Sequence record: SRR31156797_8254
Reading direction: 5' to 3' (one strand)
Length of the DNA: 64,000 nucleotides
Every line of letters starts with the position of its first letter. Position 1 is the stretch's first letter. The position numbers and the translations under genes are program-made. This document shows positions 3,290 through 30,407 of the stretch, one piece after another. Under the pieces are notes generated by a model. That model did not search any database. It was not told where the DNA came from and worked only from the letters and a program-made list of their open reading frames with translations.

Positions 3290-3317
3290 TTGACAATGGA
3301 ATTATCAGCAATACTGT
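3290..3317 (+). promoter_or_regulatory. Candidate sigma70 promoter P1 for the polysaccharide operon
   Basis: TTGACA (3290-3295), 16-nt spacer, TACTGT (3312-3317); the -10 overlaps palindrome 1. Confidence 0.45.
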
Positions 3318-3329
3318 TCAATGCTTGAA
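3301..3329 (-). promoter_or_regulatory. Candidate sigma70 promoter for metK
   Basis: Minus strand TTCAAG, 17-nt spacer, GATAAT; the -35 and spacer lie inside palindrome 1. Confidence 0.3.
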
Positions 3330-3331
3330 CA
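3315..3331. promoter_or_regulatory. Palindromic operator 1, TGTTCA-N5-TGAACA
   Basis: TGTTCA-ATGCT-TGAACA, perfect 6-bp arms; an identical-armed copy lies 69 bp downstream. Confidence 0.75.
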
Positions 3332-3358: not shown

Positions 3359-3387
3359 TTGTAGAGTTTGTGATTCTGTGCTATGTT
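3359..3387 (+). promoter_or_regulatory. Candidate sigma70 promoter P2 (extended -10)
   Basis: TTGTAG (3359-3364), 17-nt spacer ending in TGc, TATGTT (3382-3387). It overlaps palindrome 2 and would start transcription just 5' of the structured leader. Confidence 0.4.
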
Positions 3388-3400
3388 CATGTTCTGAACA
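3384..3400. promoter_or_regulatory. Palindromic operator 2, TGTTCA-N5-TGAACA
   Basis: TGTTCA-TGTTC-TGAACA, perfect 6-bp arms. Confidence 0.75.
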
Positions 3401-3517
3401 AAGACAGTTCGGGAGTCACTTGCAGGTTGTATAGAGTTTCGGCCATCATCCTGCGCCTCCTTTCTAATTTGCTATTGTAACCCCGGTATAGCTGCGGGTA
3501 AGGGGAGAACTGTCTTT
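3400..3517 (+). ncRNA. Candidate structured leader RNA (three-stem junction), family not recognised
   Basis: An 11-bp perfect closing stem, AAAGACAGTTC (3400-3410) with GAACTGTCTTT (3507-3517), encloses GGGAG/CTCCT, TGCAGG/CCTGCG and ACCC-CGGT/GCTG-c-GGGT stems. It is a GC-rich island in an AT-rich spacer. Confidence 0.55.
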
Positions 3518-3536
3518 ATTTTCGTATTATAATATT

Positions 3537-4040
3537 ATGGATAAAGAACTTATTATTCTTGAACAAATACAAAATAATCCTCATGTAAACCAAAGAGATC
3601 TGGCTTCGATAGCAAAGGCTTCTCTTGGGATGACTAATGCTATCCTCAAGCGTTTTGCTGCTAAAGGTTTCATAACAATTAGGAAGGTTAACAATAGGAA
3701 CATATTATACGCTTTGACTCCGGCTGGTATCGAAGAGATAAATCGAAGATCATGGAATTATTTTAAGAGAACAATAAAGAATGTTGTGGATTACCAAGAT
3801 GCTATTCGTGAAATTGTCAAACAGGCTCGAGTCGATGGTTATGAGGGTGTCGCCTTAGTTGGGAATAGTGATTTCGCTTTTATTGTTGAACATGTATGTT
3901 ATAAGGAAGGCATTGATTTTCATGTTTGTAATGATATGAAAAGAAATAAACTTTTCTATTTATTGGCAGAAAATAGTTCGCTTGGAATTGAAACAGAAGT
4001 TAAATCTTCGTTCTCTCTCTCAAGACTTATTGTTAAGTAA
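3537..4040 (+). CDS. Winged helix-turn-helix (MarR-like, EPS-locus-associated) transcriptional regulator
   Basis: NQRDLA...SLGMTNAILKRFAAKGFI...YALTPAGIEE wHTH pattern plus a C-terminal alpha/beta domain; first gene of the locus. Confidence 0.85.
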   Translation: MDKELIILEQIQNNPHVNQRDLASIAKASLGMTNAILKRFAAKGFITIRKVNNRNILYALTPAGIEEINRRSWNYFKRTIKNVVDYQDAIREIVKQARVDGYEGVALVGNSDFAFIVEHVCYKEGIDFHVCNDMKRNKLFYLLAENSSLGIETEVKSSFSLSRLIVK

Positions 4041-4059: not shown

Positions 4060-5055
4060 ATGTTGAAGAACTCAACCATCCTTGTTACCGGAGGAACCGG
4101 TTCCTTCGGGCATAAATTTATAGAAATGACTCTTGAAAAGTATGACCCTAAAAAAATCATCGTTTATTCAAGAGATGAGATGAAACAGTGGAATATGGCT
4201 GCGAAGTTCGATGATCCTCGACTGCGTTTCTTTATAGGTGATGTCCGAGATAAAGAAAGGCTTTACAGAGCTTTGGATGGTGTTGATTATGTTGTACACG
4301 CAGCTGCCACCAAAATAGTACCTACCGCTGAATATAACCCTTTTGAGTGTATAAAAACGAATATTAACGGTGCCATGAATCTTATCGATGCTTGTATAGA
4401 CAAGAAAATCAAGAGAGTTGTGGCCTTGAGTACAGATAAGGCTTGTAATCCAATCAATCTTTATGGTGCCACTAAGTTGGCTTCCGATAAGGTATTTGTC
4501 GCAGGAAACTCTTATTCAGGAGAACATGGAACAGTGTTTTCCGTAGTTAGGTATGGAAATGTCATGGGGAGCCGAGGATCGGTTATTCCTTTTTTCCTGT
4601 CTAAGAAAGATGAGGGAACGCTTCCTATAACCGATGAGCGGATGACTCGATTCATGATCACTCTTGATCAGGGCGTTGAGCTGGTTTGGACGGCTTTTGA
4701 AGATGCAGAAGGGGGCGAAATCTATGTAAAGAAGATCCCGTCTATGAAGGTAGTTGATTTAGCAAAGACTGTCGCCCCTGAAGCTGAATTGGAATATATC
4801 GGTATCCGTCCCGGTGAGAAACTGCACGAAATCATGATCAGTGTTGAAGATTCTCTGTTTACATACGAATATGAGGATTATTATAAGATTCTCCCCTCAA
4901 TTCATGACTGGTACTCAGACGAGACAAGAATTAAAGATGGAAAGAAAGTTCCTGATGGTTTCTCCTACACCAGTGATAATAACAAAGAGTGGATGACCAG
5001 CGCGGACCTGAACTCCTGGATAGAAAAAGAATTCCATAAGATGGTTAAGGTATAA
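4060..5055 (+). CDS. pseB: UDP-N-acetylglucosamine 4,6-dehydratase (inverting)
   Basis: TGGTGSFG, YSRDEMKQ, HAAATKIVPTAEYNP, STDKA, YGATK, RYGNVMGSRGSV, GIRPGEKLHE. Start moved to ATG 4060 (AGGAG SD). Confidence 0.93.
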   Translation: MLKNSTILVTGGTGSFGHKFIEMTLEKYDPKKIIVYSRDEMKQWNMAAKFDDPRLRFFIGDVRDKERLYRALDGVDYVVHAAATKIVPTAEYNPFECIKTNINGAMNLIDACIDKKIKRVVALSTDKACNPINLYGATKLASDKVFVAGNSYSGEHGTVFSVVRYGNVMGSRGSVIPFFLSKKDEGTLPITDERMTRFMITLDQGVELVWTAFEDAEGGEIYVKKIPSMKVVDLAKTVAPEAELEYIGIRPGEKLHEIMISVEDSLFTYEYEDYYKILPSIHDWYSDETRIKDGKKVPDGFSYTSDNNKEWMTSADLNSWIEKEFHKMVKV

Positions 5056-5058
5056 GAG

Positions 5059-6204
5059 ATGATTCCCTACGGAAGACAGTGTATAGATCAAGAAGATATC
5101 GACTCGGTAGTATCAGTACTGAAATCTGATTACCTGACACAGGGACCTGCTGTGAAGAAGTTGGAGGATGATATCGCTGAGTATTGTGGCTCCAAGTACT
5201 GCGTCGTCGTCTCCAATGGAACAGCTGCTCTTCACATAGCAGTTGCAGCTCTTGGCCTTTCTGATGGGATTGAAGGGATTACGAGCCCAATCACTTTTGC
5301 TGCATCAGCCAATTCTATGGCGTATTGCGGTATAAAGCCCGTGTTTGCCGATATCGATTCGAAAACCTATAATATTTCTGTTTCAGATATTAAAAAACGA
5401 ATTTCCAACAGGACGAAATTGATTACTCCGGTACATTTTGCTGGGCAGGCATGTGATATGAAGCCAATTAAAGAACTTGCAGATGATCATGGAATGGCGG
5501 TTCTCGAGGATGCCGCTCATGCAATTGGCTCAACTTATAAAGACGGTAGTCGCGTGGGAAACTGCAAGTATTCGGATATGACGACTTTTTCTTTTCATCC
5601 TGTGAAGACCATTACGACAGGTGAAGGCGGCGCTATCACCACTAATCGTAAAGATCTCTATGAAAAGCTCTGCCTTCTGAGGTCTCATGGTATTACTAAA
5701 GATCCGGAAAAGTTAAGCCAGAATCCGGGGCCCTGGTATTATGAGATGCAGGATCTCGGTTACAACTATCGAATGACTGACTTTCAGGCTGCTTTGGGGT
5801 GCAATCAGTTGAAGAAGCTGGAATCATTTAAAGAAAGACGAAGGACAATCGTTAGCACATATAATAATGCATTTAAAGATATAGAGTATTTAGAGACTCC
5901 CTTTGAGGATCCTGAAGTAGACTCCTGTTTTCATTTGTATGTGTTAAAATTTAACTTTGAGAAAATCGGTCTTTCCAGGAAAGAACTTATGATGAGCCTT
6001 CGTGAAAAAGGAATACTTACTCAGGTACATTATATTCCCGTACACTTATTGCCTTATTATGTGCAAGAATACGGATGTAAAAGGGGTGATTATCCTAACG
6101 CTGAGTCCTATTATGAGTCTTGTCTGAGCATCCCATTGTATCCTTCTATGAGAAATGAAGATGTTGAAAAGGTGGTATTTGAAATATCACATGTAACAGC
6201 CTGA
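5059..6204 (+). CDS. pseC: UDP-4-amino-4,6-dideoxy-N-acetyl-beta-L-altrosamine transaminase
   Basis: MIPYGRQ, LTQGP, FSFHPVKTITTGEGG, LRSHGI, GYNYRMTD; follows pseB. Confidence 0.9.
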   Translation: MIPYGRQCIDQEDIDSVVSVLKSDYLTQGPAVKKLEDDIAEYCGSKYCVVVSNGTAALHIAVAALGLSDGIEGITSPITFAASANSMAYCGIKPVFADIDSKTYNISVSDIKKRISNRTKLITPVHFAGQACDMKPIKELADDHGMAVLEDAAHAIGSTYKDGSRVGNCKYSDMTTFSFHPVKTITTGEGGAITTNRKDLYEKLCLLRSHGITKDPEKLSQNPGPWYYEMQDLGYNYRMTDFQAALGCNQLKKLESFKERRRTIVSTYNNAFKDIEYLETPFEDPEVDSCFHLYVLKFNFEKIGLSRKELMMSLREKGILTQVHYIPVHLLPYYVQEYGCKRGDYPNAESYYESCLSIPLYPSMRNEDVEKVVFEISHVTA

Positions 6205-6221
6205 ATGATGGAGTAATTACC

Positions 6222-6971
6222 ATGTACAATGGAAAAAGAATCGTAGCGACAATTGAAGCAAGGATGACTTCAACCAGGCTTCCGGGTAAAGTGCTTCTAG
6301 ATTTGGCAGGGATGCCTGTTCTCGAAGTCATGAAAAAGAGAATCGATAAAAGCAAGTTTGTTGATGAAGTTGTAGTTGCTACTACTGTGAACAAGGACGA
6401 CGATTCGATTGTTCGGTTATGCGGTGATATCGGTTGTTCCGTATCCCGAGGCAGTGAAGATGATGTCTTATCCAGAGTGATGGCTGCTGCTGAGGAATTT
6501 AACGCTGATATTATCGTAGAATTGACGGGAGATTGCCCCTTCATCGATCCAGTTATTATTGATGATGTCCTTGAACTGTATTTTTCAGGAAATTATGATT
6601 ACGCGTCGAATGTTGTAAAGCGGACCTTTCCTGATGGCTTTGACGTTGAAGTATTTTCGCTTGAGAATCTTCGAAAGGTTGATGTGTTGACTAATGATCC
6701 AATCGACAGAGTGCATGTATCAACCTTCTTTTATCAGAATCCTGATAAGTTCAGTATCGCGAACCTTGAAGCAACTGAGGGGCTGAAATGGCCAGAGTTG
6801 GGGATTACCCTGGATGAACGGAAGGATTATGAAATGTTGATGGCTATAGCCGATAAGTTAGCGGATGTAGAGACTGCTTCAGCATCGAACATTGTCGAAT
6901 TGATAAGGACTAATTTAGACATCCTGGAAATAAATAAAGATGTGAGACGAAAAGAAATCTGTGAAGGTTGA
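6222..6971 (+). CDS. SpsF-type cytidylyltransferase
   Basis: IEARMTSTRLPGKVL, RGSEDDVL, LTGDCPFIDP, FPDGFDVE, TLDERKDY. Confidence 0.85.
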   Translation: MYNGKRIVATIEARMTSTRLPGKVLLDLAGMPVLEVMKKRIDKSKFVDEVVVATTVNKDDDSIVRLCGDIGCSVSRGSEDDVLSRVMAAAEEFNADIIVELTGDCPFIDPVIIDDVLELYFSGNYDYASNVVKRTFPDGFDVEVFSLENLRKVDVLTNDPIDRVHVSTFFYQNPDKFSIANLEATEGLKWPELGITLDERKDYEMLMAIADKLADVETASASNIVELIRTNLDILEINKDVRRKEICEG

Positions 6972-6972
6972 T

Positions 6973-7923
6973 ATGAAGCTGAAGGCTTTAGTTATCGGTT
7001 GTGGGAGGATAGGAGCTTTTTTCGATTCCCCCGACTCTTCTGAAATCCTGACTCATGCGAATGCTTATTACAAGGAAGAGCGTGTCGGTGAAATCGCTTT
7101 TTTCGATATTGATGATAAACGTACTTTAGAGGCAGCAACTCTTTGGAAGGGGAAGGCATTACTGTCTATAGATGAACTGAAGGAGTACGCTCCTGATCTA
7201 GTGAGTATTTGTGTGCCTGACGAGCTTCATTCTCAGTATATTAGACTGGCTGCGGAATCCAATCCCTCCATGATACTGGCGGAAAAACCCATAACCGATC
7301 GTTTAAACCTCTCTTACGAGTTACTGGATCTTCTTCAGAGTAAGAAAATCCCCTGCAATGTAAATTATTCAAGAAGGTTTGATACATATCTGCGTCAATT
7401 GTATGAAGAGTTTAGTAAGGGGCGCCTCGGCACGATCCTTTCCGTCCAGGCGGTTTATGGTAAGGGATTGCTCCATAACGGATCTCATCTGATAGATCTT
7501 CTTGTATGGTTTTTCGGCTCTGTACAAAAAATGAAGGCCTTAAACTCTGTGAAGGACTTTAGGGAGGAAGATCCAAGTGTGGGATTCTGGATGCAATGTG
7601 AAAAAGCCGATTCTATTAATGTTTCCGTCGTTGACTCCAGAGTTTATACCGCATTTGAGCTAACATTCTATTTTGAGAATGCGAAGGTCTCTTTTACAAG
7701 AGGCGGGCTGGAGTGTGAGGTCACAATGGTAGAAGAAGATGGTTTGTTTGAAGGTTACCGAGATTTAATCACTCCCAAAGCCATTGAGACAAGTCTTTCC
7801 CTAGCAATGTCGTGCTATGTTAAAAATTCTATTGATGCTTTGAGTGGAAAAGAGAGTTTGTTTTCCCCTATAGGCAATGCCGTATATGTACAAGAAGTCT
7901 GTACAGAACTATTGAAAGGATAA
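6973..7923 (+). CDS. Gfo/Idh/MocA family oxidoreductase
   Basis: IGCGRIG, EKP, VNYSRRF, HNGSHLIDL. ATG 6973 preferred over GTG 6961. Confidence 0.85.
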   Translation: MKLKALVIGCGRIGAFFDSPDSSEILTHANAYYKEERVGEIAFFDIDDKRTLEAATLWKGKALLSIDELKEYAPDLVSICVPDELHSQYIRLAAESNPSMILAEKPITDRLNLSYELLDLLQSKKIPCNVNYSRRFDTYLRQLYEEFSKGRLGTILSVQAVYGKGLLHNGSHLIDLLVWFFGSVQKMKALNSVKDFREEDPSVGFWMQCEKADSINVSVVDSRVYTAFELTFYFENAKVSFTRGGLECEVTMVEEDGLFEGYRDLITPKAIETSLSLAMSCYVKNSIDALSGKESLFSPIGNAVYVQEVCTELLKG

Positions 7924-7927
7924 AATA

Positions 7928-9238
7928 ATGGGAAAATTAGCAGTTAATGGTGGAGAAAGAATCAGAAACAGAGATCTGCCGAATTACACAGTAATGAACG
8001 AACGGGAAGCTCAGGCTGCTTATGATGTCGTACGGAAGGGAATCCTATCTGATTTCCTGGGGTGTTGGGATGATTGTTTTTTCGGTGGGGAAGAGATTAA
8101 GAGCTTTGAAGTCGAATGGGCTGAAAAATTCAATGCTAAACATGCTATTACTGTGAATTCCAACTCTTCGGGAATCCTTTGTGCTCTGGGTGCCGCTGGA
8201 GTCGGTCCCGGTGACGAAGTTATCGTATCACCTTATTCAATGTCTGTTTCAGCGTCCGCACCATTTTTCTATGGTGCCATGCCGGTTTTTGCTGATATAG
8301 AAGAAGACTATTTCTGCATCTCCCCTGAGAGTGTTGAACGAGTGATCACGCCAAGGACGAAGGCCATTATAGCGGTCGACATCTTCGGTCATTCCTATGA
8401 CTACAGAAGAATCAATGAGATTGCCAAAGCTCATAATATCACTGTTATTGAAGATTGTGCCCAGGCGCCGGGGGGAATGATCGATGGCAAGTTTGCCGGT
8501 ACAAATGGACACATGGGTGTCTTCTCCTTGAATTATCATAAGCACATTCATACGGGAGAGGGTGGTATTATCGTCACAGATGATGATGATCTTGCATTGC
8601 GGTGTAAGCTGATTCGAAATCATGCTGAATCGGTTGTTGATGATATGCCCTATACAACAAGCTCTGTTAATATGGTTGGTCTTAATGTCAGGATGACCGA
8701 AGTGGAAGCCGCAATCGGTAGGGTTCAGTTGAGTAAACTTGATTCTCTTGTTGAAGCCCGAATAGAGAATGTTAAGTATTTTGAAGAATCGATCAAAGAT
8801 ATTCCATTTCTGACTCTTCCTAAAGTGGATGAGAACTGTAAGCATGTTTACTATGTTCATACCTTGAAATATGAGATGTCTTTAGCCAATGACGTGCCTC
8901 GGGATGTCTATATCAAAGCAGTAAACGAGGAACTTATGCCCGATGGTGTCAATAGAACAAGAAACAGTTTCGTCGCCGGGGGCTATGTGAAACCTCTTTA
9001 TCTTCAGAGTCTATATACAGAGAAAAGGGGAATGGGTGCAAAGGCATATCCCTTTGGGAATCCTATCTATGAGGATGTTCAGGCTTTTGAAAGAGGACTC
9101 TGTCCTGTTGTTGAAGATATGCACTTCAACAAGGCAATGACAAATGATTTGATTCATCCTTCTTTGACAAAGGACGATATGAGTGATATAGCCGGTGCCT
9201 TTGTCAAAGTCGCGGAGAATCTTGACGAATTGAAATGA
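7928..9238 (+). CDS. DegT/DnrJ/EryC1/StrS sugar aminotransferase
   Basis: IEDCAQA, FSLNYHKHIHTGEGG, GLNVRMTE. Confidence 0.9.
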   Translation: MGKLAVNGGERIRNRDLPNYTVMNEREAQAAYDVVRKGILSDFLGCWDDCFFGGEEIKSFEVEWAEKFNAKHAITVNSNSSGILCALGAAGVGPGDEVIVSPYSMSVSASAPFFYGAMPVFADIEEDYFCISPESVERVITPRTKAIIAVDIFGHSYDYRRINEIAKAHNITVIEDCAQAPGGMIDGKFAGTNGHMGVFSLNYHKHIHTGEGGIIVTDDDDLALRCKLIRNHAESVVDDMPYTTSSVNMVGLNVRMTEVEAAIGRVQLSKLDSLVEARIENVKYFEESIKDIPFLTLPKVDENCKHVYYVHTLKYEMSLANDVPRDVYIKAVNEELMPDGVNRTRNSFVAGGYVKPLYLQSLYTEKRGMGAKAYPFGNPIYEDVQAFERGLCPVVEDMHFNKAMTNDLIHPSLTKDDMSDIAGAFVKVAENLDELK

Positions 9239-10116
9239 AAATTGCTGTCTGTTGTCATGATGCCGGTGGCTCGGAAGTGGTAGCCGCTTGGGTTGCTGCA
9301 AATCCTCAAAATCATTATAGCTTTATTTTAAAAGGCCCTTCTATAAAAATATTTGATAGGGTTTGTGATCTTACGGAAAATAGCTCTTCTATACCTCCAG
9401 ATTCTGACCTCGTGCTAACTAGTACAAGTTGGGCATCTGAGCATGAGCTGGAGTGTATTAAAGATGCTAAAAAGCAGGGGATAAAGAGTGCATCGTATAT
9501 CGATCATTGGGTAAATTATCGAGAGCGCTTTGCTTATCCCAATTCAAACTGGGAAGAAAACCTTCCTGATGAGATCTGGTATGGGGATGAGTATGCGCAT
9601 GACATACTTCTTGATACTGGTTTTCCTGATGTAATGCTAAAATATGTTGAGAATGAATATTTTAATAGCTTAAAAGAAAAAATGAGCAAGTCAATTGTTA
9701 GTAAATATAAGTACCTTTATGTTTGCGAACCAATAGCAGATCATATGTTTGACAAATATGGAGACTCTTTGTACCTTGGGTATGATGAATATACGGCAAT
9801 AGATCATTTCTTTAGAATAGTAATTTCTTCAAGTGATAGAATCTTGATTAGGTTACATCCATCTGAGTCCAAAAAAAAATATAATTCTATTATCCATAAA
9901 TATAATGCTATATTGAAAATTGATATATCTGAAAATACAACTCTTTTTGATGATATTGAAAATTCAAAGATAGTAGTTGGATGTGAGTCAATGGCAATGG
10001 TTATTGCTTTAATGGCAGGTAAAAAAGTATATACATCAATCCCCTTAGGCAGGGATATGTGTCGTTTACCTTTTGTCGAAATTAGGAAATTAGGAACTTT
10101 ACTATATAATGAATAG
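9235..10116 (+). CDS. Hypothetical GT-B-like protein, possible nonulosonate transferase or hydrolase
   Basis: HDAGG, DHWVNYRERF, RLHPSE, VVGCESMAMVIALMAGKKV; the HP and terminal motifs resemble CMP-sugar-binding GT-B domains. Confidence 0.45.
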   Translation: MKIAVCCHDAGGSEVVAAWVAANPQNHYSFILKGPSIKIFDRVCDLTENSSSIPPDSDLVLTSTSWASEHELECIKDAKKQGIKSASYIDHWVNYRERFAYPNSNWEENLPDEIWYGDEYAHDILLDTGFPDVMLKYVENEYFNSLKEKMSKSIVSKYKYLYVCEPIADHMFDKYGDSLYLGYDEYTAIDHFFRIVISSSDRILIRLHPSESKKKYNSIIHKYNAILKIDISENTTLFDDIENSKIVVGCESMAMVIALMAGKKVYTSIPLGRDMCRLPFVEIRKLGTLLYNE

Positions 10117-11671
10117 AATGATATTAGACAAGAATGAAAAAGAATTTATTGAGCATAATAAAAAAGTTTGGAAAAATGAAAGAATATCATCTGAAAATCT
10201 TATCCTTATAGATCTCTTTCCTGTTAATGAATCCATTCTTATTTACTCTTATCTTTCTAATATACTAAGTAATATTTTTAATGCAAGAATATACTCCTTC
10301 TCTCAATCTATAACTATTAAGCAGAAAATCAAAAATATAGTATTACCCAATAAAACACTAAGAATATTTAAGAGTTTTAACTGTCTAAAGAATGTTCATG
10401 TAAAACATCTTAACAAAGAAAGAAATAATATTAAAATTAAAGTCAACCAGATTATTGAAAAAATATCAACAAAGAAAGATGTAGTAGAGATTGAAGTTGA
10501 TAATATTGTTCTAGGTGACCTGATTTATGATACATATCTTAGAGTTCATAATTGCCCAACTGTTGAGCTTGGTAGCAAGCGCTTGAAAGATACAATAACT
10601 AAAGCAATTATAACATATACATTTTGGAATCAATTTATTAAGAATAATGACCTAAAAGCCGTTATAATTAGTCATGAAGTTTATATTCAATATGGTATAC
10701 TTGCTCGGTTATGTTACAGTAAAAATATTCCTGTCTATATAGCAAATAGAGGTACTTGCAATCATCTCTCTGCGGAAAAGCCTATGATAGACAGTATTGT
10801 TAACGATTATAGAGAAATCTTTAATAATCTACCGCAACATATAAGGTCAAAAGGTCTAAAAGATGCCCAATCAGCTTTACAAAGAAGGTTATCTGGAGAG
10901 GTCGGAATTGATATGGATTATCAAGTCCTTTCTGCCTATCATAGTGAGAAAACGTGTAAATTACTGGAATCATCAGATCGATTTAAAGTTCTTATAGCAA
11001 CTCATTGTTTCTTTGATAATCCTCATAGTTATGAGTTTATGATTTTTCCGGATTTTTATGAGTGGTTATGTTTTATAGGTGAAATGACTTTAAAGACAGA
11101 TTATGATTGGTATTTAAAGACTCATCCTGATTATTTACCAGGAACAATGGAAGTCATTAATTCAGTTATCAAAAAATATCCTAAAATAAAATTATTACCT
11201 GCAGAGGCTTCTCATCATCAATTAATCGAAGAAGGGATTGATGCTGTGTTAACAATTCATGGGTCTATAGCACATGAATATGCGTATTTTGGTCTTCCAG
11301 TTGTAAATGCGGGTCACAATCCTCATATTAAATACAACTTTAATATTCACACTACAAATTTAGACGATTACAGGAAGGTAATTCTAAATTTGAATAATCA
11401 AAAACTGGATATTAATAAAATTGAAATATTCGAATTTTATTATACGCATTATATAAGATCAATTAATAAAGAGTGGTTTTTTGATAAAGAATTTTATAGC
11501 TTATTTAGTTCTTTTGAAGAGTTATCGTCTTCTGTAATACTTAGTAAGTTTATTAATCATACTTTCAAAAATAAGCATGCATTGTTAATTGAGAGGATTA
11601 AAAGGTTTATTGAAAGTTCTGAATTCAGACTTTTAGTTGATGATGAATTGGAATGTGAAAATGATACTTAA
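10109..11671 (+). CDS. KpsS/KpsC-like capsule biosynthesis glycosyltransferase
   Basis: C-terminal LKTHPD...VLTIHGSIAHEYAYFGLPVVNAG pattern typical of the capsule-synthesis fold. Confidence 0.55.
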   Translation: MNRMILDKNEKEFIEHNKKVWKNERISSENLILIDLFPVNESILIYSYLSNILSNIFNARIYSFSQSITIKQKIKNIVLPNKTLRIFKSFNCLKNVHVKHLNKERNNIKIKVNQIIEKISTKKDVVEIEVDNIVLGDLIYDTYLRVHNCPTVELGSKRLKDTITKAIITYTFWNQFIKNNDLKAVIISHEVYIQYGILARLCYSKNIPVYIANRGTCNHLSAEKPMIDSIVNDYREIFNNLPQHIRSKGLKDAQSALQRRLSGEVGIDMDYQVLSAYHSEKTCKLLESSDRFKVLIATHCFFDNPHSYEFMIFPDFYEWLCFIGEMTLKTDYDWYLKTHPDYLPGTMEVINSVIKKYPKIKLLPAEASHHQLIEEGIDAVLTIHGSIAHEYAYFGLPVVNAGHNPHIKYNFNIHTTNLDDYRKVILNLNNQKLDINKIEIFEFYYTHYIRSINKEWFFDKEFYSLFSSFEELSSSVILSKFINHTFKNKHALLIERIKRFIESSEFRLLVDDELECENDT

Positions 11672-12941
11672 ACATATAAAAAGAAATTTTAAAATTGGGA
11701 GTATTTATACATTAGGAAATATTTTAAATAGGGGTATCCCTCTATTGTTAATGCCATATTTGACAAGAGTGTTACCACCTCATCAATATGGATTGGTGTC
11801 ACTGTTTTTATCATTAACAGTATTATTGACGGCGATTATGGGCTTTTCATCTAATACTGTCATAAGTCAGAAATACTTCAAAGTCAGTAATGATGAAAGA
11901 GCATATTTAGTATCTGATGCTTTAAAATTATCGTTTATAGGATTTATTTTATTATTAATTATAATATTGCCTTTCTCTGCCTTAATTGATGATTACTTTG
12001 AAATTCCACAATGGCTGCTATTCACTAGTCTTATTGTTTCGTTTATGAATATTTGGTTTTTGATAGCCAAAGTTATACTACAAGTAGAAAAAAAGGCAAT
12101 GTTATACGCTTTTGGAATAAATAGCATAACTTTATTTAACATAGTATTCTCAATATTGTTTATTTCTTTGTTTAATTTAGGATGGAATGGACGTATCTTA
12201 GGTTTTTTACTTAGTAGTTTTCTCAGTATGCTTTTGTCTATATTTGTATTGATTAAATTGAGCTTATTAAATAAAAAATCTCTATTTAACACTAAATATT
12301 TGAATGAAATTTTTATTTTAGGTTTAGCATTGGTTCCCTCATCTATCGGTGGATGGATATATTCTTTAGGTGATAGATTTGTTTTATCTGGACTGTTGAG
12401 TAATGAAGCTGTTGGTTTATACGCAGCTTCTTTTTCATTAGCTTCTCTTATTGATATTGTTGCTACTCCTGTGGGATTAGTTTGGGCTCCTATTTTTTTT
12501 GATAAAAAGGCAAAATCTAACGATGAAACGAATCATATCGTTAATAAAGTTAGTTGTGTTTTAGCTATTGGTTATTTATTCATTGCTGTAGTCGGAACAT
12601 TTGCTCTACCGCTATTCGCAAAAATATTTTTGGGAGCTAAATTCATTCAGTCATCTTTTTTGGTTCCATGGTTGGTTTTCGGGTTTGCGTTCAGATCTAT
12701 AGCTGGGCTATTAAGCTATTATATTCTACACAATGAAAATAATATTTTGTTGACAATTCACTTTTTGATTAATTCTGTATTCTCTTTAGGGTTGAGTATT
12801 ATGATGATTAAATTAAAAGGATTAATTGGAATTGCTCAAGCGAATTGCTTTTCTGGGCTAATAGGTTTATTTCTCATGTTACTATTTGTAAAAATATCAA
12901 ATCGAGTAGGTGTCAAAAATGGATATAAGCTTTCAGAGTGA
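11661..12941 (+). CDS. wzx: Oligosaccharide flippase (Wzx, PST family) no. 1
   Basis: About 12 hydrophobic segments; LLMPYLTRVL..QYG and DRFVL...VGLYAAS motifs. Start set at ATG 11661. Confidence 0.85.
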   Translation: MILKHIKRNFKIGSIYTLGNILNRGIPLLLMPYLTRVLPPHQYGLVSLFLSLTVLLTAIMGFSSNTVISQKYFKVSNDERAYLVSDALKLSFIGFILLLIIILPFSALIDDYFEIPQWLLFTSLIVSFMNIWFLIAKVILQVEKKAMLYAFGINSITLFNIVFSILFISLFNLGWNGRILGFLLSSFLSMLLSIFVLIKLSLLNKKSLFNTKYLNEIFILGLALVPSSIGGWIYSLGDRFVLSGLLSNEAVGLYAASFSLASLIDIVATPVGLVWAPIFFDKKAKSNDETNHIVNKVSCVLAIGYLFIAVVGTFALPLFAKIFLGAKFIQSSFLVPWLVFGFAFRSIAGLLSYYILHNENNILLTIHFLINSVFSLGLSIMMIKLKGLIGIAQANCFSGLIGLFLMLLFVKISNRVGVKNGYKLSE

Positions 12942-13998
12942 AACTAATTATCATGAATGGAATCAATTCATGACAAATGATAAAATACTTAATCTATGGG
13001 GCTATACTTTGAGTTTCCTGAAGCAATGTGGTGTAAAGGGAAATAAAAAAGATAAAAGTTTTGCAGTTATTGAGAATAAAGAAGTTATTGGTATATGTCT
13101 TCTTTACATCGTGGAGATAGATGGTGTTCTTACAATATCAAATGATGGAGGATTTCTTAGAGGTCCAATGGTGCTAAGCAAAATCTCTGAGAAAAAAAAA
13201 GAGAAAGTAATGGATTTTATAATGCAGACAGTTGACACCATCGCGATCGATTATAATATCAAAAAATCATTATTTTTCTATGATCCACAAATGGAGTTAC
13301 CTAATATTGGGAACATTCTTCTTAAATATGATTATATTGATGCTTCAATCAATACACAGTTAATATATTTAAAATTAGATGAGTCCGAAATTCGGAAAAA
13401 TTTTAGAAAAAGCTATAAATCTTTAGTAAATAAAGGACTGAAAACATATGACTTTTTTGTAATGAATGCTGACAATCCAAATTATGACATTCATGACTTG
13501 TATAGAAAAACACATATAAAAGCAGCTGGTTTTGAGGTATATTCAAAAGAAATATATGATAGTCAATTTGAGCAATTACTAAAAGGAGAGTCCACTTTAA
13601 TTGGTGTAAAGTATAGCAATGAAATTGTTCAGTTGAATTATTTTAATCATTTTAACGGTTATGTTTATTATGCATCAGCAGCTGACGATCCAGATTTTTC
13701 GGACAATTGTAAAGTTCCCATTGGGCATTCCATTATGTGGTTTGCAATTCAATATTTTAAAAAGAATGGTTTTAGCTTTTTTGAGTTGGGTTGGCAAAAT
13801 CTAACAAATCAATTATTTGACATTCCTAGTAATAAAGAAATTAGTATAAGTTACTTTAAGAATGGATTTGGAGGTGAGTTAATCTCATTATTTCGTGGAA
13901 TAAAGTATTTTGATAATGAATATAAAAGTAAAGATTTAAAAAATACTATGAATCAATATTTAGAAAAAGAAGCGGAACGGTTGTCGACTGAGAGGTAA
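12919..13998 (+). CDS. FemAB/GNAT-like acyl or aminoacyl transferase, paralog 1
   Basis: IRKNFRKSYKSLVNKG, YASAA, FFELG, ISYFKNGFGG (Fem-type FKxGFG). Confidence 0.7.
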   Translation: MDISFQSETNYHEWNQFMTNDKILNLWGYTLSFLKQCGVKGNKKDKSFAVIENKEVIGICLLYIVEIDGVLTISNDGGFLRGPMVLSKISEKKKEKVMDFIMQTVDTIAIDYNIKKSLFFYDPQMELPNIGNILLKYDYIDASINTQLIYLKLDESEIRKNFRKSYKSLVNKGLKTYDFFVMNADNPNYDIHDLYRKTHIKAAGFEVYSKEIYDSQFEQLLKGESTLIGVKYSNEIVQLNYFNHFNGYVYYASAADDPDFSDNCKVPIGHSIMWFAIQYFKKNGFSFFELGWQNLTNQLFDIPSNKEISISYFKNGFGGELISLFRGIKYFDNEYKSKDLKNTMNQYLEKEAERLSTER

Positions 13999-14001
13999 GT
14001 T

Positions 14002-15036
14002 TTGGAGATAATATATCAAAGCAAGGTTAATTATAGAGATTGGGATGTATTTCTTAAAAATGAAAATGATCTAAATCTTTGGGCATATACAAAGAAATTT
14101 ATGGATCAGTGTGGCATATCATTCGAAAAAAAAGATTTAAGCTTTGCTGTTATAGAAGATAATTCCGTTATAGGAATTTGCCCACTATTCATAACTAATG
14201 TTCATGGATATAAAGAGATATCTGATGATGGAGGTTATCTTAGGTCATATATAGCTACATCAAGTGCTGATGGAAGAAAAAGAGAGCGAATTTATGACAC
14301 TATAAATTCTGAAATTGATAGAATTTCATGTGAATACAACGTGAAAAAAATCATGTATTCACAAGATCCTCAAATTACAAATAAATCGGATGGTAATCCT
14401 TTTTTAAAATATAATTATCTTAATTCTTCTATAAATACTCAATTAATCGATCTTGATTGTGAGATAGAAATTTTACGTCAAGGATTCAGGAAAAGCTATA
14501 AGGCCTTAGTGAATAAAGGTCTTAAAACATATGATTTCAAGGTAATGAATTGTCAAAATCCAGATTATGAATTGCATGAATTATATCGGGAAACACATAA
14601 AAAAGCAGCTGGTAGAGAAACAAGAAGTAAACATAGTTTTGATCTTCAATTTGATCAGCTACTAAACGGTGAAGCGACATTAGTGGCTGTTTCTTATGAA
14701 GGAAGCTATGTGCAGCTAAACTATTTTAATCATTTTAATAATTATGTTTATTATGCATCAGCAGCTGATGATCCTGAATTTACTAAGTCTTGTGATGTTC
14801 CTATCGGTCATTCAATAATTTGGTTTGCAATAGAATATTTTAAAAGGATAAATTTTAGATTTTTCGAATTAGGTTTACAATATACAAAAAATAACCTTTT
14901 TGATGATATTTCCGATAAGGAGATAAATATTAGTTATTTTAAAAGGGGATTTGGCGGGAGGAATGTTCCTGTTTTTAGGGGAATTAAGTTTTATGATCTT
15001 GGAATATTGAGTAATTTATTTGACAGAATAGCTTAA
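14002..15036 (+). CDS. FemAB/GNAT-like acyl or aminoacyl transferase, paralog 2
   Basis: Same motifs (FRKSYKALVNKG, HKKAAGRETRS, ISYFKRGFGG); TTG start with GAGGT SD. Confidence 0.7.
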   Translation: MEIIYQSKVNYRDWDVFLKNENDLNLWAYTKKFMDQCGISFEKKDLSFAVIEDNSVIGICPLFITNVHGYKEISDDGGYLRSYIATSSADGRKRERIYDTINSEIDRISCEYNVKKIMYSQDPQITNKSDGNPFLKYNYLNSSINTQLIDLDCEIEILRQGFRKSYKALVNKGLKTYDFKVMNCQNPDYELHELYRETHKKAAGRETRSKHSFDLQFDQLLNGEATLVAVSYEGSYVQLNYFNHFNNYVYYASAADDPEFTKSCDVPIGHSIIWFAIEYFKRINFRFFELGLQYTKNNLFDDISDKEINISYFKRGFGGRNVPVFRGIKFYDLGILSNLFDRIA

Positions 15037-15075
15037 TTATAATTAGTTCTGCTACAACAGAATGGGAGTTTTTTC

Positions 15076-16143
15076 GTGAAAATATTGTTGATAGGTGGTA
15101 CCGGTGCTATAGGAACGTATTTAGCTGATATCCTATCGAAAAATAATAATAATATATGTATTACATCTAGAAAAATAAGAAATAGTTATAATAATATTCA
15201 ATTTTTAAAAGGTGATGGTCATAATCTTGAATTCCTGACAAAAATTTTAAAACAAGAAATTTGGGATGTTGTAGTAGATTTTATGGTCTATAGTACGAGT
15301 GAGTTTATTGAACGTAAAAAACTATTACTAGATTCCACTTCTCATTACATATTTCTAAGTACATCAAGAATATTCTCTGAGTCAGATGAACCAATTACTG
15401 AAGAATCAGCTTTACTATTAGATAATATAAATGATAATTCTTTTTTGAAATCTGATGATTATTCATTGTCAAAAGCGAAGCAAGAAAAAGAGTTGTACAA
15501 GTCTGGTAAGCTAAACTGGACAATTGTTCGCCCATATATTACCTATAGCAAAAGTAGACTGCAATTAGGCGTATTTGAAAAGGAAGAGTGGTTATATAGG
15601 GCTATAAAAGGTAGGTCTATTGTTTTTTCAAGTGATATGGGTAATAAGTTGACAACAATGACATATGGATTTGATGTTGCAAAAGGAATTTGCTCAATAA
15701 TTAATAATAGTAAAGCAAATGGCAATGTCTATAATATTTCAAATAATTTATCAAAGTTTAGTTGGAATGATATACTGAATTTATATTGTAGATTACTTGA
15801 AGATAAACTAAATAGACCAATAAAAGTGAAACTTGTTAGTATGGAAGTTTTTAAAAAAATTAGGCCATCTGAATACCAAATTGAATATGACAGAATGTAT
15901 AACAGGGTATTTGATACAAGCAAAATAAACAAGATAATGGATAACACTGAATTTTCGGATTTAAAAAAGGGGTTAGAAAGATGTATTCTGGAGTTTTTAG
16001 AAAACCCTGATTTTTTTTCAATATATTGGGGATTAGAGGCTAAGAAAGATAAAATAGCTAATGAAAAAACTCCACTATGTGAGATAAATGGTTTTCCTGA
16101 TAAATTAAGATATTTATATCATAGATATTTAAAGGCAGAATAA
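15076..16143 (+). CDS. NAD-dependent epimerase/dehydratase (atypical SDR)
   Basis: GGTGAIG, FLSTSR, YSLSK, IVRPYITY; GTG start with GGGAG SD. Confidence 0.8.
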   Translation: MKILLIGGTGAIGTYLADILSKNNNNICITSRKIRNSYNNIQFLKGDGHNLEFLTKILKQEIWDVVVDFMVYSTSEFIERKKLLLDSTSHYIFLSTSRIFSESDEPITEESALLLDNINDNSFLKSDDYSLSKAKQEKELYKSGKLNWTIVRPYITYSKSRLQLGVFEKEEWLYRAIKGRSIVFSSDMGNKLTTMTYGFDVAKGICSIINNSKANGNVYNISNNLSKFSWNDILNLYCRLLEDKLNRPIKVKLVSMEVFKKIRPSEYQIEYDRMYNRVFDTSKINKIMDNTEFSDLKKGLERCILEFLENPDFFSIYWGLEAKKDKIANEKTPLCEINGFPDKLRYLYHRYLKAE

Positions 16144-16157
16144 AAAGGAGCATTTCA

Positions 16158-17903
16158 ATGTCTAATAACTATCCAAATGAAGAAAATGTACAAATAATTA
16201 TATCTTTATTAAAAAAGAATAATATTAGAAAAGTTATAGCATCTCCGGGAACTACTAATATGCCTTTAGTCTGGAGTGTTCAGCATGATGATTTTTTTGA
16301 GGTATATTCTTCAGCAGATGAAAGATCCGCAGCATATATGGCATGTGGTTTGGCAAGTGAATCAGGAGAACCTGTTGTATTGTCTTGTACAGAGGCAACT
16401 GCATCAAGAAATTATCTTCCTGGATTGACAGAAGCTTATTATAGGAAAATTCCGGTGTTAGCAATAACATCTGCTAAAGAGAAAATGTATGCTGGTCATT
16501 ATCTTCCTCAAGTTATTGATCAGAGTGTCATGCCAATAGATACTGCTAAATTGAGTATTTCAATTCCTGTAATTAAAAACTCTGATGACTTTTGGGATTG
16601 TGAGATAAAAGTCAATAATGCTTTATTAGAATTAAAACGACATGGTGGAGGTCCTGTTCATCTTCATTTAACAACGAATTATGGAGGACTTTACGATGTT
16701 AAGACACTTCCAAGTACAAGATTAATATCACGAATAACACAAAATGATGATTTTCCAGATTTGCCGAGTGGTAAAGTAGGGATTTTTGTTGGTGCACATT
16801 CTAAAATGACAGAGTCGTTAATTGATAAGATTGATCGTTTCTGTGAATTGAATAATGCTGTAGTTTTTTGTGACCATACTAGTGGCTATAACGGCCGATT
16901 CAAAGTCCAATTTGCAATTGTCGCTGGTCAAGAATTTCTTGATATATCTGAGTTTATTCCAGAAACATTGATTTATATTGGTGAAGTTTCAGGAGATTAT
17001 TATTCTCATTCACTCGCGAGTAAAAACGTTTGGCGAGTTAGTGAAGATGGGGAAATTAGAGACGCTTTTCGATCATTAAGATATGTTTTTGAAATGCCTG
17101 AAGAAATTTTCTTTGAGATGTATTCTAAAGAAGATTCTGAATCTTTAAATTCATATCTCAATAAGTGCTTAAATAAAGTTACCAATATTAAAGATAGAAT
17201 AAATGAATTAACATTTTCGAACATATGGATAGCTGCCAAATCTGTCTCTATGATACCAAAGAACTCAATAATTCATTTTGGAATTCTAAATAGTTTAAGA
17301 GCGTGGAATTTTTTTGATATTCCTAATTCTGTATCTGCTTCAAGTAATGTAGGAGGTTTTGGAATAGATGGTTGTGTCTCTACATTAATTGGTGCCTCTC
17401 TTGCTGACATAGATAAAATATGTTTTGGTGTTTTTGGAGATCTTGCTTTTTTTTATGATATGAATTCAATAGGAAATCATCATGTCGGTCAAAATGTAAG
17501 AATTATGCTAATTAATAATGGTTGTGGAATCGAATTTAGAAATTACAACCATCGAGCGGCTGTTTTTGGTGAAGACGCTCGAGATTTTATGGCAGCTGCA
17601 GAACATTATGGAAATAAGTCTCCTTTATTGATTAAAAATTATGCTGAAAATCTAGGTTTTGAATATATGAGTGCTTCCTCGAAAAAAGAATTTGAGAATT
17701 GTTATCAGAGGTTTTTTACTGCTGAAATAACTGAAAAACCTATTCTGTTTGAAGTCTTCACTGATGAGAAAGAGGAAAGTATTGCATTGAAGAGTATAAG
17801 AAATGTTGAAAAAAATATTAAAGGTTCATATAAACCGTTGATTAGAAATACCATTGGGGAGAAAAATATTAGAGGTATAAAAAAAATAATAGGAAAACAG
17901 TAA
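16158..17903 (+). CDS. MenD-like thiamine-diphosphate-dependent enzyme (polysaccharide-locus type)
   Basis: ASPGTTN, DERSAAYMACGLA, GGPVHLHL, NVGGFGIDG, ThDP motif GDLAFFYD...INN; no other men genes in the window. Confidence 0.85.
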   Translation: MSNNYPNEENVQIIISLLKKNNIRKVIASPGTTNMPLVWSVQHDDFFEVYSSADERSAAYMACGLASESGEPVVLSCTEATASRNYLPGLTEAYYRKIPVLAITSAKEKMYAGHYLPQVIDQSVMPIDTAKLSISIPVIKNSDDFWDCEIKVNNALLELKRHGGGPVHLHLTTNYGGLYDVKTLPSTRLISRITQNDDFPDLPSGKVGIFVGAHSKMTESLIDKIDRFCELNNAVVFCDHTSGYNGRFKVQFAIVAGQEFLDISEFIPETLIYIGEVSGDYYSHSLASKNVWRVSEDGEIRDAFRSLRYVFEMPEEIFFEMYSKEDSESLNSYLNKCLNKVTNIKDRINELTFSNIWIAAKSVSMIPKNSIIHFGILNSLRAWNFFDIPNSVSASSNVGGFGIDGCVSTLIGASLADIDKICFGVFGDLAFFYDMNSIGNHHVGQNVRIMLINNGCGIEFRNYNHRAAVFGEDARDFMAAAEHYGNKSPLLIKNYAENLGFEYMSASSKKEFENCYQRFFTAEITEKPILFEVFTDEKEESIALKSIRNVEKNIKGSYKPLIRNTIGEKNIRGIKKIIGKQ

Positions 17904-17937
17904 TTTAATTATCAATAAAATTGACTGTAAAAGCGAG

Positions 17938-18990
17938 ATGAATGTGAATATAGGGATCTTAACTTTTCATGATGGAATAAATTTCGGTGCATATGCGCAA
18001 GTTTATGCACTGCAAAAGGCTCTTGAGAATTTAGGCCATCATGTAAGAATCATAAATTATAAAAACTCAAAACTTTGGATGAAAGAATATAAAAGTTTTT
18101 TATATACGTTGAATCTAAAGACATTTATAAACAATGTTATTAAAATTGTAAAGTTCAAAAAAGAACATAAGAAACTGAATCTCACAAGATTTTCTTTTAG
18201 GCCAGATATTATTGACAGAGAAGAATTTGACTGTGTAATTGTGGGAAGTGACGAAGTCTGGAATTTTTCAAGTTCTTTTATTGGATTGGATAAAAACTAT
18301 TTTGTGCCTAGAGATAATGTTAGGACGATTTCTTATGCTGCTAGTTTTGGAAGTTCTATCAATGGACAGAATATTCCAGATATAGTCGCTAATGGAATTA
18401 ATAAGTTTAATCAAATATCTGTCAGAGATGAAAATTCTAAAAAGCTTATAAATAATATAACAAAAAGAGATGTACCAATTGTATTAGATCCTACTTTTTT
18501 ACATGACTTTTCAGAAGATGTTATTCCAATGAAAAGAAAGAATTACATTGTTTATTATTCTGTTGATTTGGAACAGAAGTATACAGATCAGATAAAACAG
18601 TTTGCAAAGCAAAAGAACAAAAAAATTATTGCTATTGGATATAAGGTTGATTGGGCGGATGAAAATATTTATAGTATTGGACCTTTTGAATGGATGGGTT
18701 TAATTAGAGATGCTGACTTTATAATTACGTCAATGTTTCATGGTACTATTTTCTCAATAAAATTTAACAAGCAGTTTTGTACATTGGAAACAAAGTACAG
18801 GAAAAATAAGATGAACCCAATGATGTCAATATTGAAGTTGGATAATAGAATTATTCAATTAAATAGCTCCAGTACTTTATATAATGAAATTAATGATAGA
18901 TATAATAATAAAATTAATTATGATACTGTCAATGTAGTTATTAATAAAAATGTTAAAAAATCCATAGATTTTTTAAATGACTCTATCTAG
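17938..18990 (+). CDS. Polysaccharide pyruvyl transferase family protein
   Basis: ILTFH..NFGAYAQ, IVGSDEVWN, SYAASFG, SVRDE, VLDPT, TSMFHGTIFS. Confidence 0.88.
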   Translation: MNVNIGILTFHDGINFGAYAQVYALQKALENLGHHVRIINYKNSKLWMKEYKSFLYTLNLKTFINNVIKIVKFKKEHKKLNLTRFSFRPDIIDREEFDCVIVGSDEVWNFSSSFIGLDKNYFVPRDNVRTISYAASFGSSINGQNIPDIVANGINKFNQISVRDENSKKLINNITKRDVPIVLDPTFLHDFSEDVIPMKRKNYIVYYSVDLEQKYTDQIKQFAKQKNKKIIAIGYKVDWADENIYSIGPFEWMGLIRDADFIITSMFHGTIFSIKFNKQFCTLETKYRKNKMNPMMSILKLDNRIIQLNSSSTLYNEINDRYNNKINYDTVNVVINKNVKKSIDFLNDSI

Positions 18991-19005
18991 AAATTGGGGG
19001 GGAAT

Positions 19006-20106: not shown

Positions 20107-20593
20107 TTACTTGATATATGATATTAAGAAGAATTATAACAATCCTAAAGGTTTGTTTTTTTTATTTCTTTTTAGAATTACTAATTTCGTTTATGTTGTC
20201 TCAAGAAAAATAATTATAACATATGTAATACTTATTCCATTAGTGATTATCTATAAAGTGATCACTGAATTATTAATGGGCGTTGAAATAAGTTATAAAA
20301 CGGAAATAGGGAAAGGTCTTACTTTTCACCATGTTAATGGTACCGTAATAAATATGAATGTTGTAATAGGTGATAATTGTCTGATTAGACATTTAACGAC
20401 TATTGGTGTTTCAAAGAAGAATAGCAGATGTCCGGTAATTGGAAATAATGTAAATATTGGTTCTAACTCTGTAATCCTTGGTGATATAACGATAGGTGAT
20501 AATGTTATAATTGGTGCGGGATCAATCGTTGTAAAATCAATACTTGAGAATGACATTGTTGCTGGAAATCCAGCAAGAAGTATTAAGAAATAA
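20099..20593 (+). CDS. CysE/WcaB-like hexapeptide O-acetyltransferase
   Basis: Left-handed beta-helix repeats (IGKG, IGDN, IGNN, IGAG) ending VAGNPAR. Confidence 0.85.
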   Translation: MINYLIYDIKKNYNNPKGLFFLFLFRITNFVYVVSRKIIITYVILIPLVIIYKVITELLMGVEISYKTEIGKGLTFHHVNGTVINMNVVIGDNCLIRHLTTIGVSKKNSRCPVIGNNVNIGSNSVILGDITIGDNVIIGAGSIVVKSILENDIVAGNPARSIKK

Positions 20594-23402: not shown

Positions 23403-23404
23403 GT

Positions 23405-26505: not shown

Positions 26506-26546
26506 TAATTGCTGAGAATGGAACCTATTGTTTTAAAGGGATAAGA

Positions 26547-28377: not shown

Positions 28378-28378
28378 T

Positions 28379-30403: not shown

Positions 30404-30407
30404 GCAT

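Follow-up and report, generated by a model that had tools for sequence, protein, structure and literature searches.

A leader RNA with a probable LoaP-type recruitment hairpin at the head of a long glycan operon

Sequence record SRR31156797_8254 provides 64,000 nucleotides (nt) of DNA, referred to here as the window, and carries a glycan-synthesis operon whose first gene encodes a winged helix-turn-helix (wHTH) regulator. Within the 346-bp gap between this gene (plus strand) and a divergent metK gene (minus strand), a first-pass annotation made from the sequence had outlined a ~118-nt fold, in which a closing helix (P1) surrounds two hairpins (P2 and P3). It proposed a new cis-acting attenuator, antiterminator or riboswitch, or a small RNA (sRNA). 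Comparison with related loci now places the conserved core at the tip of P2, where a UNCG tetraloop caps the hairpin, and points to LoaP, a paralog of NusG, as its probable partner.

Genomic context and promoter region

Downstream of a promoter-like site (3359-3387), the hairpin precedes a series of ~55 co-directional genes that begins at 3537 (Table 1). The wHTH protein matches the TIGR04176 model (MarR_EPS), but below its cut-off, and the sequence TATTATAAT stands immediately 5' of the ATG at 3537. Downstream, the operon continues on the plus strand with tiny intergenic gaps through 63874. Its products include PseH, PseI and a PseC-like protein (pseudaminic acid), GDP-mannose dehydratase and fucose synthase (GDP-fucose), many glycosyltransferases, flippases and acetyltransferases, and an ABC transporter at the end. 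Domain scans of the 59 open reading frames (ORFs) in the window detected no NusG or KOW domain and no recombinase domain.

Table 1. Features of the leader region and its neighbouring genes; positions are those of the window.
Feature	Position	Strand	Basis or remark
metK, split	2031-3231	-	N-terminal and middle domains in ORF 2518-3231, C-terminal domain in 2031-2345
Operator-like palindrome 1, TGTTCAATGCTTGAACA (TGTTCA-N5-TGAACA)	3315..3331		matching spacing in relatives
Promoter-like site: TTGTAG 3359-3364, 17-nt spacer, extended -10 TGcTATGTT 3379-3387	3359..3387	+	read from sequence
Operator-like palindrome 2, TGTTCATGTTCTGAACA	3384..3400		overlaps -10 and predicted start
P1 5' arm, AAAGACAGUUC	3400..3410	+	fold, repeat search, shuffle test
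P2 hairpin	3421..3455	+	base stem UGCAGG 3421-3426 / CCUGCG 3450-3455; fold and family alignment
P2 tip, G-A-GU[UUCG]GC-C	3434-3444	+	tetraloop 3438-3441, above irregular internal loop
Pyrimidine run CCUCCUUU	3456..3463	+	pairs with GGGAG 3411-3415 or AAGGGG 3500-3505
P3 hairpin, ACCCCGG-UAUAG-CUGCGGGU	3480..3499	+	fold, 5-sequence consensus
Purine-rich motif GGGGAGAACUGU	3502..3513	+	3' part is the beginning of the P1 3' arm
P1 3' arm, GAACUGUCUUU	3507..3517	+	fold, repeat search, shuffle test
U-rich tract UUUAUUUU after P1	3515..3522	+	candidate leader terminator jointly with P1
First gene, 167-aa winged-helix regulator (HTH_24 / MarR-like)	3537..4040	+	domain scan, 69 related loci
~54 co-directional glycan-synthesis genes	4060..63874	+	ORF and domain scans

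On the far side of the gap, the N-terminal and middle part of metK stops at 2518, and the frame with the C-terminal domain is open from ~2560. The split is a single frameshift near 2520-2560, from either a pseudogene or an assembly error.

Searching the wHTH protein against one genome per species yielded 69 related loci (numbered with the prefix L), 68 of them labelled spirochaete and the other a contig labelled Pirellulales. The nearest relatives belong to Oceanispirochaeta, with wHTH identities of 63-79%. A palindrome, TGTTC-N7-GAACA or more fully TGTTC(A/G)-N5-TGAACA, precedes the wHTH gene within 1.1 kb in 58 of the 69 loci; with ten fixed bases, its chance expectation is well below one per ~350 kb. 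The window holds two copies 69 bp apart, and L001, L002, L004 and L005 are likewise doubled (68-70 bp). When the window and these four loci are aligned, the block GTG-TATGTTCA and the extended -10 TGnTATGTT are invariant across the five sequences. From the position of this -10, transcription is predicted to start at ~3394-3397, directly 5' of P1; the promoter-like site is absent from the output of a promoter consensus scan. The wHTH protein probably uses this palindrome as its own operator; in the window, the divergent metK may be served by it as well. We know of no regulator that has this palindrome as its site.

A covarying UNCG hairpin in related leaders

About 40 nt past the palindrome, the word GUUNCGGC appears in 50 of the 58 palindrome-bearing loci, and eight loci with short leaders lack it (L003, L006, L009, L013, L043, L052, L055 and L065). 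The flanks of this word pair with each other as 5'-...A-G-Y-N-(N)-G-U-[U-N-C-G]-G-C-N-R-C...-3', producing a hairpin in which a stem with one bulged base is followed by G-C and U.G pairs that close a UNCG tetraloop. Loops of the forms UUCG, UCCG, UGCG and UACG occur across the aligned sequences, and the variable fourth letter of the word (U, C, G or A) thus corresponds to the N of UNCG.

Conservation and covariation, which the first-pass annotation had named as a check, were scored for ten stem pairs in an alignment of 52 sequences (51 distinct): the window, the 50 loci with both palindrome and hairpin, and L054. Controls consisted of 500 shuffles together with slid alignments. The ten pairs are formed in 88.0% of cells against 63.9% in shuffles, and 133 cells carry double changes against 54. 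The covariation score reaches 0.640, compared with 0.205 in shuffles and at most 0.20 in the slid controls; none of the 500 shuffles attains the observed pairing, double-change or covariation value. Eight letters of the motif served to pick the sequences and are invariant for that reason, a restriction from which the covariation of the flanks is exempt. One stem position holds 18 U.G pairs in addition to the invariant U.G closing pair. Because all of these would become C-A on the minus strand, the RNA is read from the plus strand, the orientation that had been proposed at the outset; here the family alignment decides, not fold energy.

The window retains the tip as G-A-GUUUCGGC-C at 3434-3444, where GUUUCGGC spans 3436-3443 and reads GU[UUCG]GC. 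The two pairs next to this tip do not form, and beyond an internal loop pairing is restored by UGCAGG/CCUGCG. A covariance model built from the 52 spirochaete hairpins scores the window copy at 12.7 bits with E 0.17 in 64 kb; the runner-up in the window, a false match, reaches 10.1 bits. Six of the ten consensus pairs are out of register in the window, which makes it a degenerate member of the family. Both the low score and the shifted register count against a LoaP-type role for the window hairpin. Across the relatives, the conserved core is the P2 tip and not the whole 118-nt fold.

The branched fold around the hairpin

In the window, the P1 repeat AAAGACAGTTC / GAACTGTCTTT is perfectly complementary over 11 bp (3400-3410 / 3507-3517), as first described. 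Its arms extend to 14 nt at 93% (3397-3410 / 3507-3520) with 96 nt between them, and exact copies of the 11-mer occur in the 64 kb at these two places only. The long-range helix scores 26, against 14.1 +/- 2.3 in 300 shuffles of the 3' region, none of which is as good. P1 closes a branched fold of ~118 nt with the P2 hairpin as one arm. The minimum-energy fold of the plus strand holds P1, GGGAG/CUCCU, UGCAGG/CCUGCG and the ACCC..GGGU hairpin, so that the helices initially assigned to P2 and P3 are all recovered. The sequence CCTCCTTT, noted in the original annotation at 3456-3463, is also present. This pyrimidine run pairs with GGGAG in the minimum-energy fold; its alternative helix with AAGGGG is a consensus helix in five Oceanispirochaeta-type sequences, and two of its six pairs survive double-sided changes.

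The U-rich run reported after P1 is likewise there. P1 and UUUAUUUU together (3507-3522) look like a terminator with 96 nt enclosed, and a terminator scan made no call at this site because its loop limit is 8 nt. Judged by this layout, P1 and the U tract may act as a leader terminator. Fold energy does not single out the plus strand: its z value is -1.15, with 30 of 200 shuffles equally stable, and the minus strand does better at -2.86.

A perfect 11-bp inverted repeat around a short segment, just 5' of a large polysaccharide operon, could also mark an invertible DNA switch. The repeats would then be recombination sites, and the 96-bp segment would flip the operon on or off. Invertible switches are known upstream of polysaccharide operons in other phyla. 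Such a switch is highly improbable here, given the lack of a recombinase among the 59 ORFs scanned, the lack of a promoter-like site in a scan of the segment, and a repeat sequence that is not kept in the nearest relatives. The inner hairpin, moreover, is conserved with U.G pairs that are sensible only in RNA. No joint or inverted form of the segment was listed among the contigs of two sequencing runs, and contigs cannot settle its orientation; run X2 has no contig over 3276-3460, which is not evidence either way.

Outside the window, the fold is kept unevenly. Tested against shuffles, a P1-like closing helix is significant in four of 13 leaders (the window, L134, L017 and L020), marginal in L007, L005 and L066, and not significant in the nearest relatives L001, L002 and L004 or in L024, L021 and L037. 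The combination of P1 and U tract as a terminator is not kept in L001, L004 and L005, which weighs against LoaP-dependent read-through of the leader. Clear terminators lie downstream of the hairpin in L158 and L162, with none in L001 or L005. A branched layout, in the order closing helix, UNCG arm, second hairpin and purine-rich strand, appears in the minimum-energy folds calculated for the window as well as for L134, L007 and L017. The 118-nt fold is thus plausible and recurs in distant lineages, but it is far less firmly conserved than the P2 tip. The original treatment of the ~118-nt RNA as a single unit does not hold; selection acts on the tip.

The strand 3' of the hairpin varies in a similar way. 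Hairpins of differing sequence stand just 5' of a purine-rich run in L001, L002, L004, L005, L017, L024, L134 and L158, and the purine-rich counterparts in other spirochaete leaders read GGCGAAGCUGUG / GGGGGAGCUGUA. The first of these, or a near variant, lies 3' of the second hairpin in L007, L017, L020, L134, L158, L037, L066 and L053. In its core, GCG-N-AGC with UGUG after it, this motif is reminiscent of the ops-type hairpins of non-template DNA; the window carries GGGGAGAACUGU instead. The pattern GCG-N(1-2)-AGC follows the hairpin in 18 of 75 sequences, compared with 6.0 +/- 2.2 in mononucleotide shuffles; several of these matches fall in coding sequence, and the motif is absent from the window. 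The k-mers enriched 3' of the hairpin are mainly T runs, present in 17 of 41 leaders (~6 expected). AGCTGTG is found in only five of the 41, which makes the 3' motif a subfamily trait.

Several leaders show additional peculiarities. In the Oceanispirochaeta relatives L002 (2230-2450) and L004 (2620-2900), leaders have grown to 0.5-0.9 kb: L002 contains a ~99-nt unit in three tandem copies, and in L004 the 3' portion of the RNA is present twice, alongside a disrupted duplication of the first wHTH codons. In L134 (1340-1800), a leader RNA adjoining LoaP is flanked on both sides by a ~100-nt direct repeat rich in GTCGAAAGT / AAAGTTGAAAG. A metagenome scan with an overly narrow operator and hairpin pattern returned three loci (L158, L159 and L160), and L159 and L160 resemble L059.

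Searches for known RNA families agree with the initial failure to find a match. At gathering score, Rfam 15 gives no hit in the window, including the families SAM-I to SAM-VI, SAH, c-di-GMP, c-di-AMP, glmS, JUMPstart and epsC/EAR. At E<=10, only four noise matches (E 4.7-9.7) fall within 3150-3650, and 37 related loci (20 plus 17 further hairpin loci) have no match.

This absence of known families, together with a helix-closed junction beside a U tract, a common riboswitch layout, brings to mind a metabolite sensor. A three-way junction, built from P1, P2, P3 plus the purine-rich strand, would be the binding site for S-adenosylmethionine (SAM), S-adenosylhomocysteine (SAH), 3'-phosphoadenosine 5'-phosphosulfate (PAPS) or 3'-phosphoadenosine 5'-phosphate (PAP) and gate the P1/U-tract terminator. 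Gene neighbourhoods lend this some colour: genes standing behind or around the wHTH gene include ahcY (16 loci), MTHFR (4), CysD-like (6), CysQ-like (8) and PfkB (6) genes, metK stands at the wHTH gene in ten loci plus the window, and in L117 a hairpin copy lies directly 5' of cysD-cysQ. However, the widely conserved part is only a simple hairpin tip, P1 fails the significance test in most leaders, and the junction strands vary between lineages. The hairpin is found, too, ahead of Wza-like, Wzz-like, flippase and other genes without a shared metabolite, and in Bacillus ahead of polyketide-type genes beside loaP. An invariant UNCG loop with fixed closing pairs would be typical of a protein site and not of a ligand pocket. 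A riboswitch is therefore quite improbable. The methyl-cycle and sulfate-activation genes near the wHTH gene also adjoin sugar-nucleotide genes, an arrangement that points to joint regulation of cofactor-recycling genes and decorated glycans.

Association of the hairpin with LoaP

LoaP is reported to bind a hairpin of UNCG type in the leaders of the Bacillus velezensis dfn and mln operons, and its antitermination requires this hairpin; the LoaP-responsive leader also contains a NusA-dependent terminator (PMC12691694). The same source places LoaP genes in Bacillota, Actinomycetota and Spirochaetota, often adjoining secondary-metabolite or polysaccharide operons (PMC12691694).

LoaP genes were detected with the NCBIfam model NF033641 at its curated cut-off. 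The model scores above this cut-off in 44 of the 55 genomes with related loci (4/5 plus 40/50), a set that covers all four nearest relatives bearing the RNA, and in none of 14 control genomes. Among solved structures, the best relative of a spirochaete LoaP protein is 8f5g (E 5e-19), which we take to be a LoaP-RNA complex; other NusG chains score 7.5e-09 or weaker.

A survey of 151 Spirochaetota genomes links the hairpin with LoaP. The hairpin model has a match (E<=0.01) in 26 genomes and LoaP exceeds the cut-off in 21; 17 have both, nine the hairpin only, four LoaP only and 121 neither. The hairpin is therefore present in 17 of 21 LoaP-positive and 9 of 130 LoaP-negative genomes, an odds ratio of 57 (Fisher p 1.2e-12) that is uncorrected for shared ancestry. 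Six of the nine hairpin-only genomes have their match inside a long ORF, so those matches are probably false.

The association also reaches across phyla. A tblastn search of spirochaete LoaP against plasmids returned three records, two of which were examined. In the Bacillus thuringiensis plasmid NZ_CP009336.1, a gene annotated 'antiterminator LoaP' stands beside polyketide-type genes, and the hairpin model has its top match (14.7 bits, E 0.013) in the intergenic leader that runs divergently from loaP. The Brevibacillus laterosporus plasmid NZ_CP011076.1 likewise has its top match divergent from loaP (12.1 bits, E 0.087), with a clear terminator further downstream in that leader. Both Bacillota leaders carry the tip U-GUUUCGGC, identical to the window tip. 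In Bacillus thuringiensis the hairpin is followed directly by GGGAGACUGU, comparable to the purine-rich motif of the window (3502-3513).

Two loci combine LoaP with the spirochaete leader. In L011 (= L081), LoaP is divergent from a unit of operator, hairpin and wHTH gene. In L134, 143 nt separate the LoaP gene from a leader that combines P1, the UNCG arm, P3 and GGCGAAGCUGUG. More generally, spirochaete LoaP genes neighbour an EamA transporter and an M24 peptidase, and none except that of L081 has a wHTH homolog beside it. In related genomes LoaP is encoded hundreds of kb from the operon. The earlier remark that the window has no NusG paralog is correct for its 59 ORFs; it is not decisive, since LoaP in these genomes lies far from the locus.

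The hairpin is not confined to wHTH loci: of the 29 best matches in other genomes, 26 come with neither palindrome nor wHTH gene. Downstream of intergenic copies stand Wza-like, Wzz-like, flippase, sugar-oxidoreductase, methyltransferase and cysD genes. With such diverse genes downstream, mostly without palindrome or wHTH gene, the common denominator is long surface-glycan operons and not one metabolite. An unexpected target class is formed by three tyrosine integrase genes (423-445 aa; L145, L152 and L153), which have near-identical hairpins (..UAUAGUAUGUUUCGGCUGCAU..) 139-186 nt upstream, all in LoaP-positive genomes. The strong hairpins of L108 and L110 are of a common type (CCCAUAGCCUGUUNCGGCGGCAUGG), and neither is accompanied by an operator or a wHTH gene. 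The L108 hairpin heads a 306-aa protein without a Pfam match; L110 has no same-strand downstream gene, and its genome has no LoaP above the cut-off.

These distributions also bear on a role for the structure that does not involve LoaP. It might be a protein-binding or stabilising 5' structure, such as a site for autoregulation by the wHTH protein on its own RNA, or a ~125-nt sRNA ending at the U tract, in which case the wHTH gene would be read from its own weak promoter. The tight linkage of hairpin, wHTH gene and operator (50 of 58 loci) fits such a role, as do the sequence TATTATAAT directly 5' of the ATG, the potential end of a short transcript at P1 and UUUAUUUU, and the copy in L110 with no gene to serve. 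Nevertheless, most of the best matches elsewhere stand apart from wHTH gene and palindrome, the Bacillota copies lie beside loaP, and the hairpin tracks LoaP across genomes. A function unrelated to LoaP is therefore unlikely.

Recruitment of LoaP faces difficulties of its own. At wHTH loci, the presence of LoaP does not discriminate: five of seven short-leader loci lie in LoaP-positive genomes, and eight hairpin-bearing loci lie in genomes without a LoaP match above cut-off. The genomes G005 and G132 have good intergenic hairpins and no LoaP above cut-off. Only two of 34 LoaP loci (+/-1.5 kb) contain a model match at E<0.001, and a LoaP gene is missing from the 59 ORFs of the window itself. 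Within the operon, terminator-like sites occur at chance level (5 against 8.3 expected, 13 against 9.7 and 7 against 7.0), so the sequence gives no sign that processivity is needed. On the coding strand, the operon contains just one strong terminator-like hairpin, at 39710-39735 within ORF 39545-41026, where 11 pairs are followed by TTTATTAATT.

Interpretation and proposed mechanism

Taken together, the evidence supports a cis-acting leader RNA on the plus strand. We consider it probable, at roughly 70%, that the element is the 5' leader RNA of a wHTH-led glycan operon and that a LoaP-type recruitment hairpin forms its functional core. Binding of LoaP and read-through of the leader and operon are inferred from sequence comparison. 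Among the possibilities first listed, the cis-acting leader and its antiterminator branch stand, and the riboswitch branch is unsupported. 'New' overstates the case: the same UNCG hairpin adjoins annotated loaP genes in Bacillota, and this would be a new example of a known control system, not a new kind of RNA. LoaP was one of the antitermination systems that the first-pass annotation had mentioned, and both co-occurrence and the Bacillota tip match favour it.

A possible sequence of events begins with transcription from ~3394-3397, at a promoter overlapped by the palindromic operator. The P2 arm would fold early in the nascent RNA, and its tip, G-N-GU[UNCG]GC-C (3434-3444), would be bound by LoaP made from a distant gene elsewhere in the genome. 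RNA polymerase modified by LoaP could then pass the stop formed by P1 and UUUAUUUU (3507-3522, ~3520) and stay resistant to termination over ~60 kb.

The leader might also be composite, with a second and so far undescribed determinant. A purine-rich motif lies 3' of the hairpin in Spirochaetota and Bacillota leaders alike, with the GCG-N-AGC form in some lineages. This motif, GGGAG(A)-CUGU / GGCGAAGCUGUG, would be a pause or DNA-contact site that aids the loading of LoaP, and the fold and operator would tie loading to the availability of the methyl and sulfate donors used in decorating glycans. This extended model is tentative and, on present evidence, somewhat doubtful.

LoaP has so far been studied in Bacillus polyketide operons. 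The literature searched contains no description of LoaP targets in Spirochaetota; it did not cover the primary LoaP papers, and a published consensus may exist. The signature drawn from the window and its relatives, A-G-Y-N-(N)-GU[UNCG]GC-N-R-C, finds candidate LoaP targets genome-wide. As it is shared with Bacillota, it could seed an Rfam family and permit regulon prediction. If this reading is true, LoaP acts in trans on glycan operons, and a ~60-kb operon needs no antiterminator gene within it to be transcribed. The trans-acting LoaP, the branched leader, the second cross-phylum motif and the coupling to a wHTH operator are the points of greatest interest.

Comparison with known antitermination systems

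The EAR (epsC) element of Bacillales is a structured RNA of ~120 nt that belongs to a polysaccharide operon and promotes processive antitermination. It is located inside its operon and not in the leader, and to our knowledge it has not been reported to act through a NusG paralog. The window, for its part, has no match to the Rfam epsC model.

The UpxY/UpxZ and opsX system of Bacteroides is similar in that capsule-dedicated NusG paralogs are recruited in the leader (PMC11685472). UpxY differs in being the first gene of each operon and in reading a multipartite DNA sequence of ~40 bp, and its operons add promoter inversion, of which there is no sign here (PMC11685472).

RfaH with ops/JUMPstart in Proteobacteria offers a further parallel, a NusG paralog whose gene lies away from its targets, the leaders of long operons for surface glycans. 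In some leaders of the spirochaete relatives, GCG-N-AGC followed by UGUG recalls the ops-type non-template hairpins given in PMC11685472 as GCGGTAGC in E. coli and YGCGNAGCR in Bacteroides. Yet ops is a 12-nt DNA signal on the non-template strand, whereas the element described here is an RNA hairpin with covarying stems, and the window lacks both GGCGGTAG and an Rfam JUMPstart match.

Compared with the LoaP system of dfn and mln, the window operon has no adjoining LoaP gene, its hairpin is an arm of a ~118-nt branched fold under an 11-bp helix, and its lower stem is degenerate. Two palindromic operators precede the leader, and a wHTH regulator gene follows it. In other respects the two are alike: a very long biosynthetic operon opens with a 5' leader that holds a UNCG-capped hairpin and, downstream of it, a terminator-like element, and genomes related to the window encode a member of the LoaP family (NF033641). 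The tip U-GUUUCGGC recurs in the loaP leaders of Bacillota, a likeness drawn from two plasmids.

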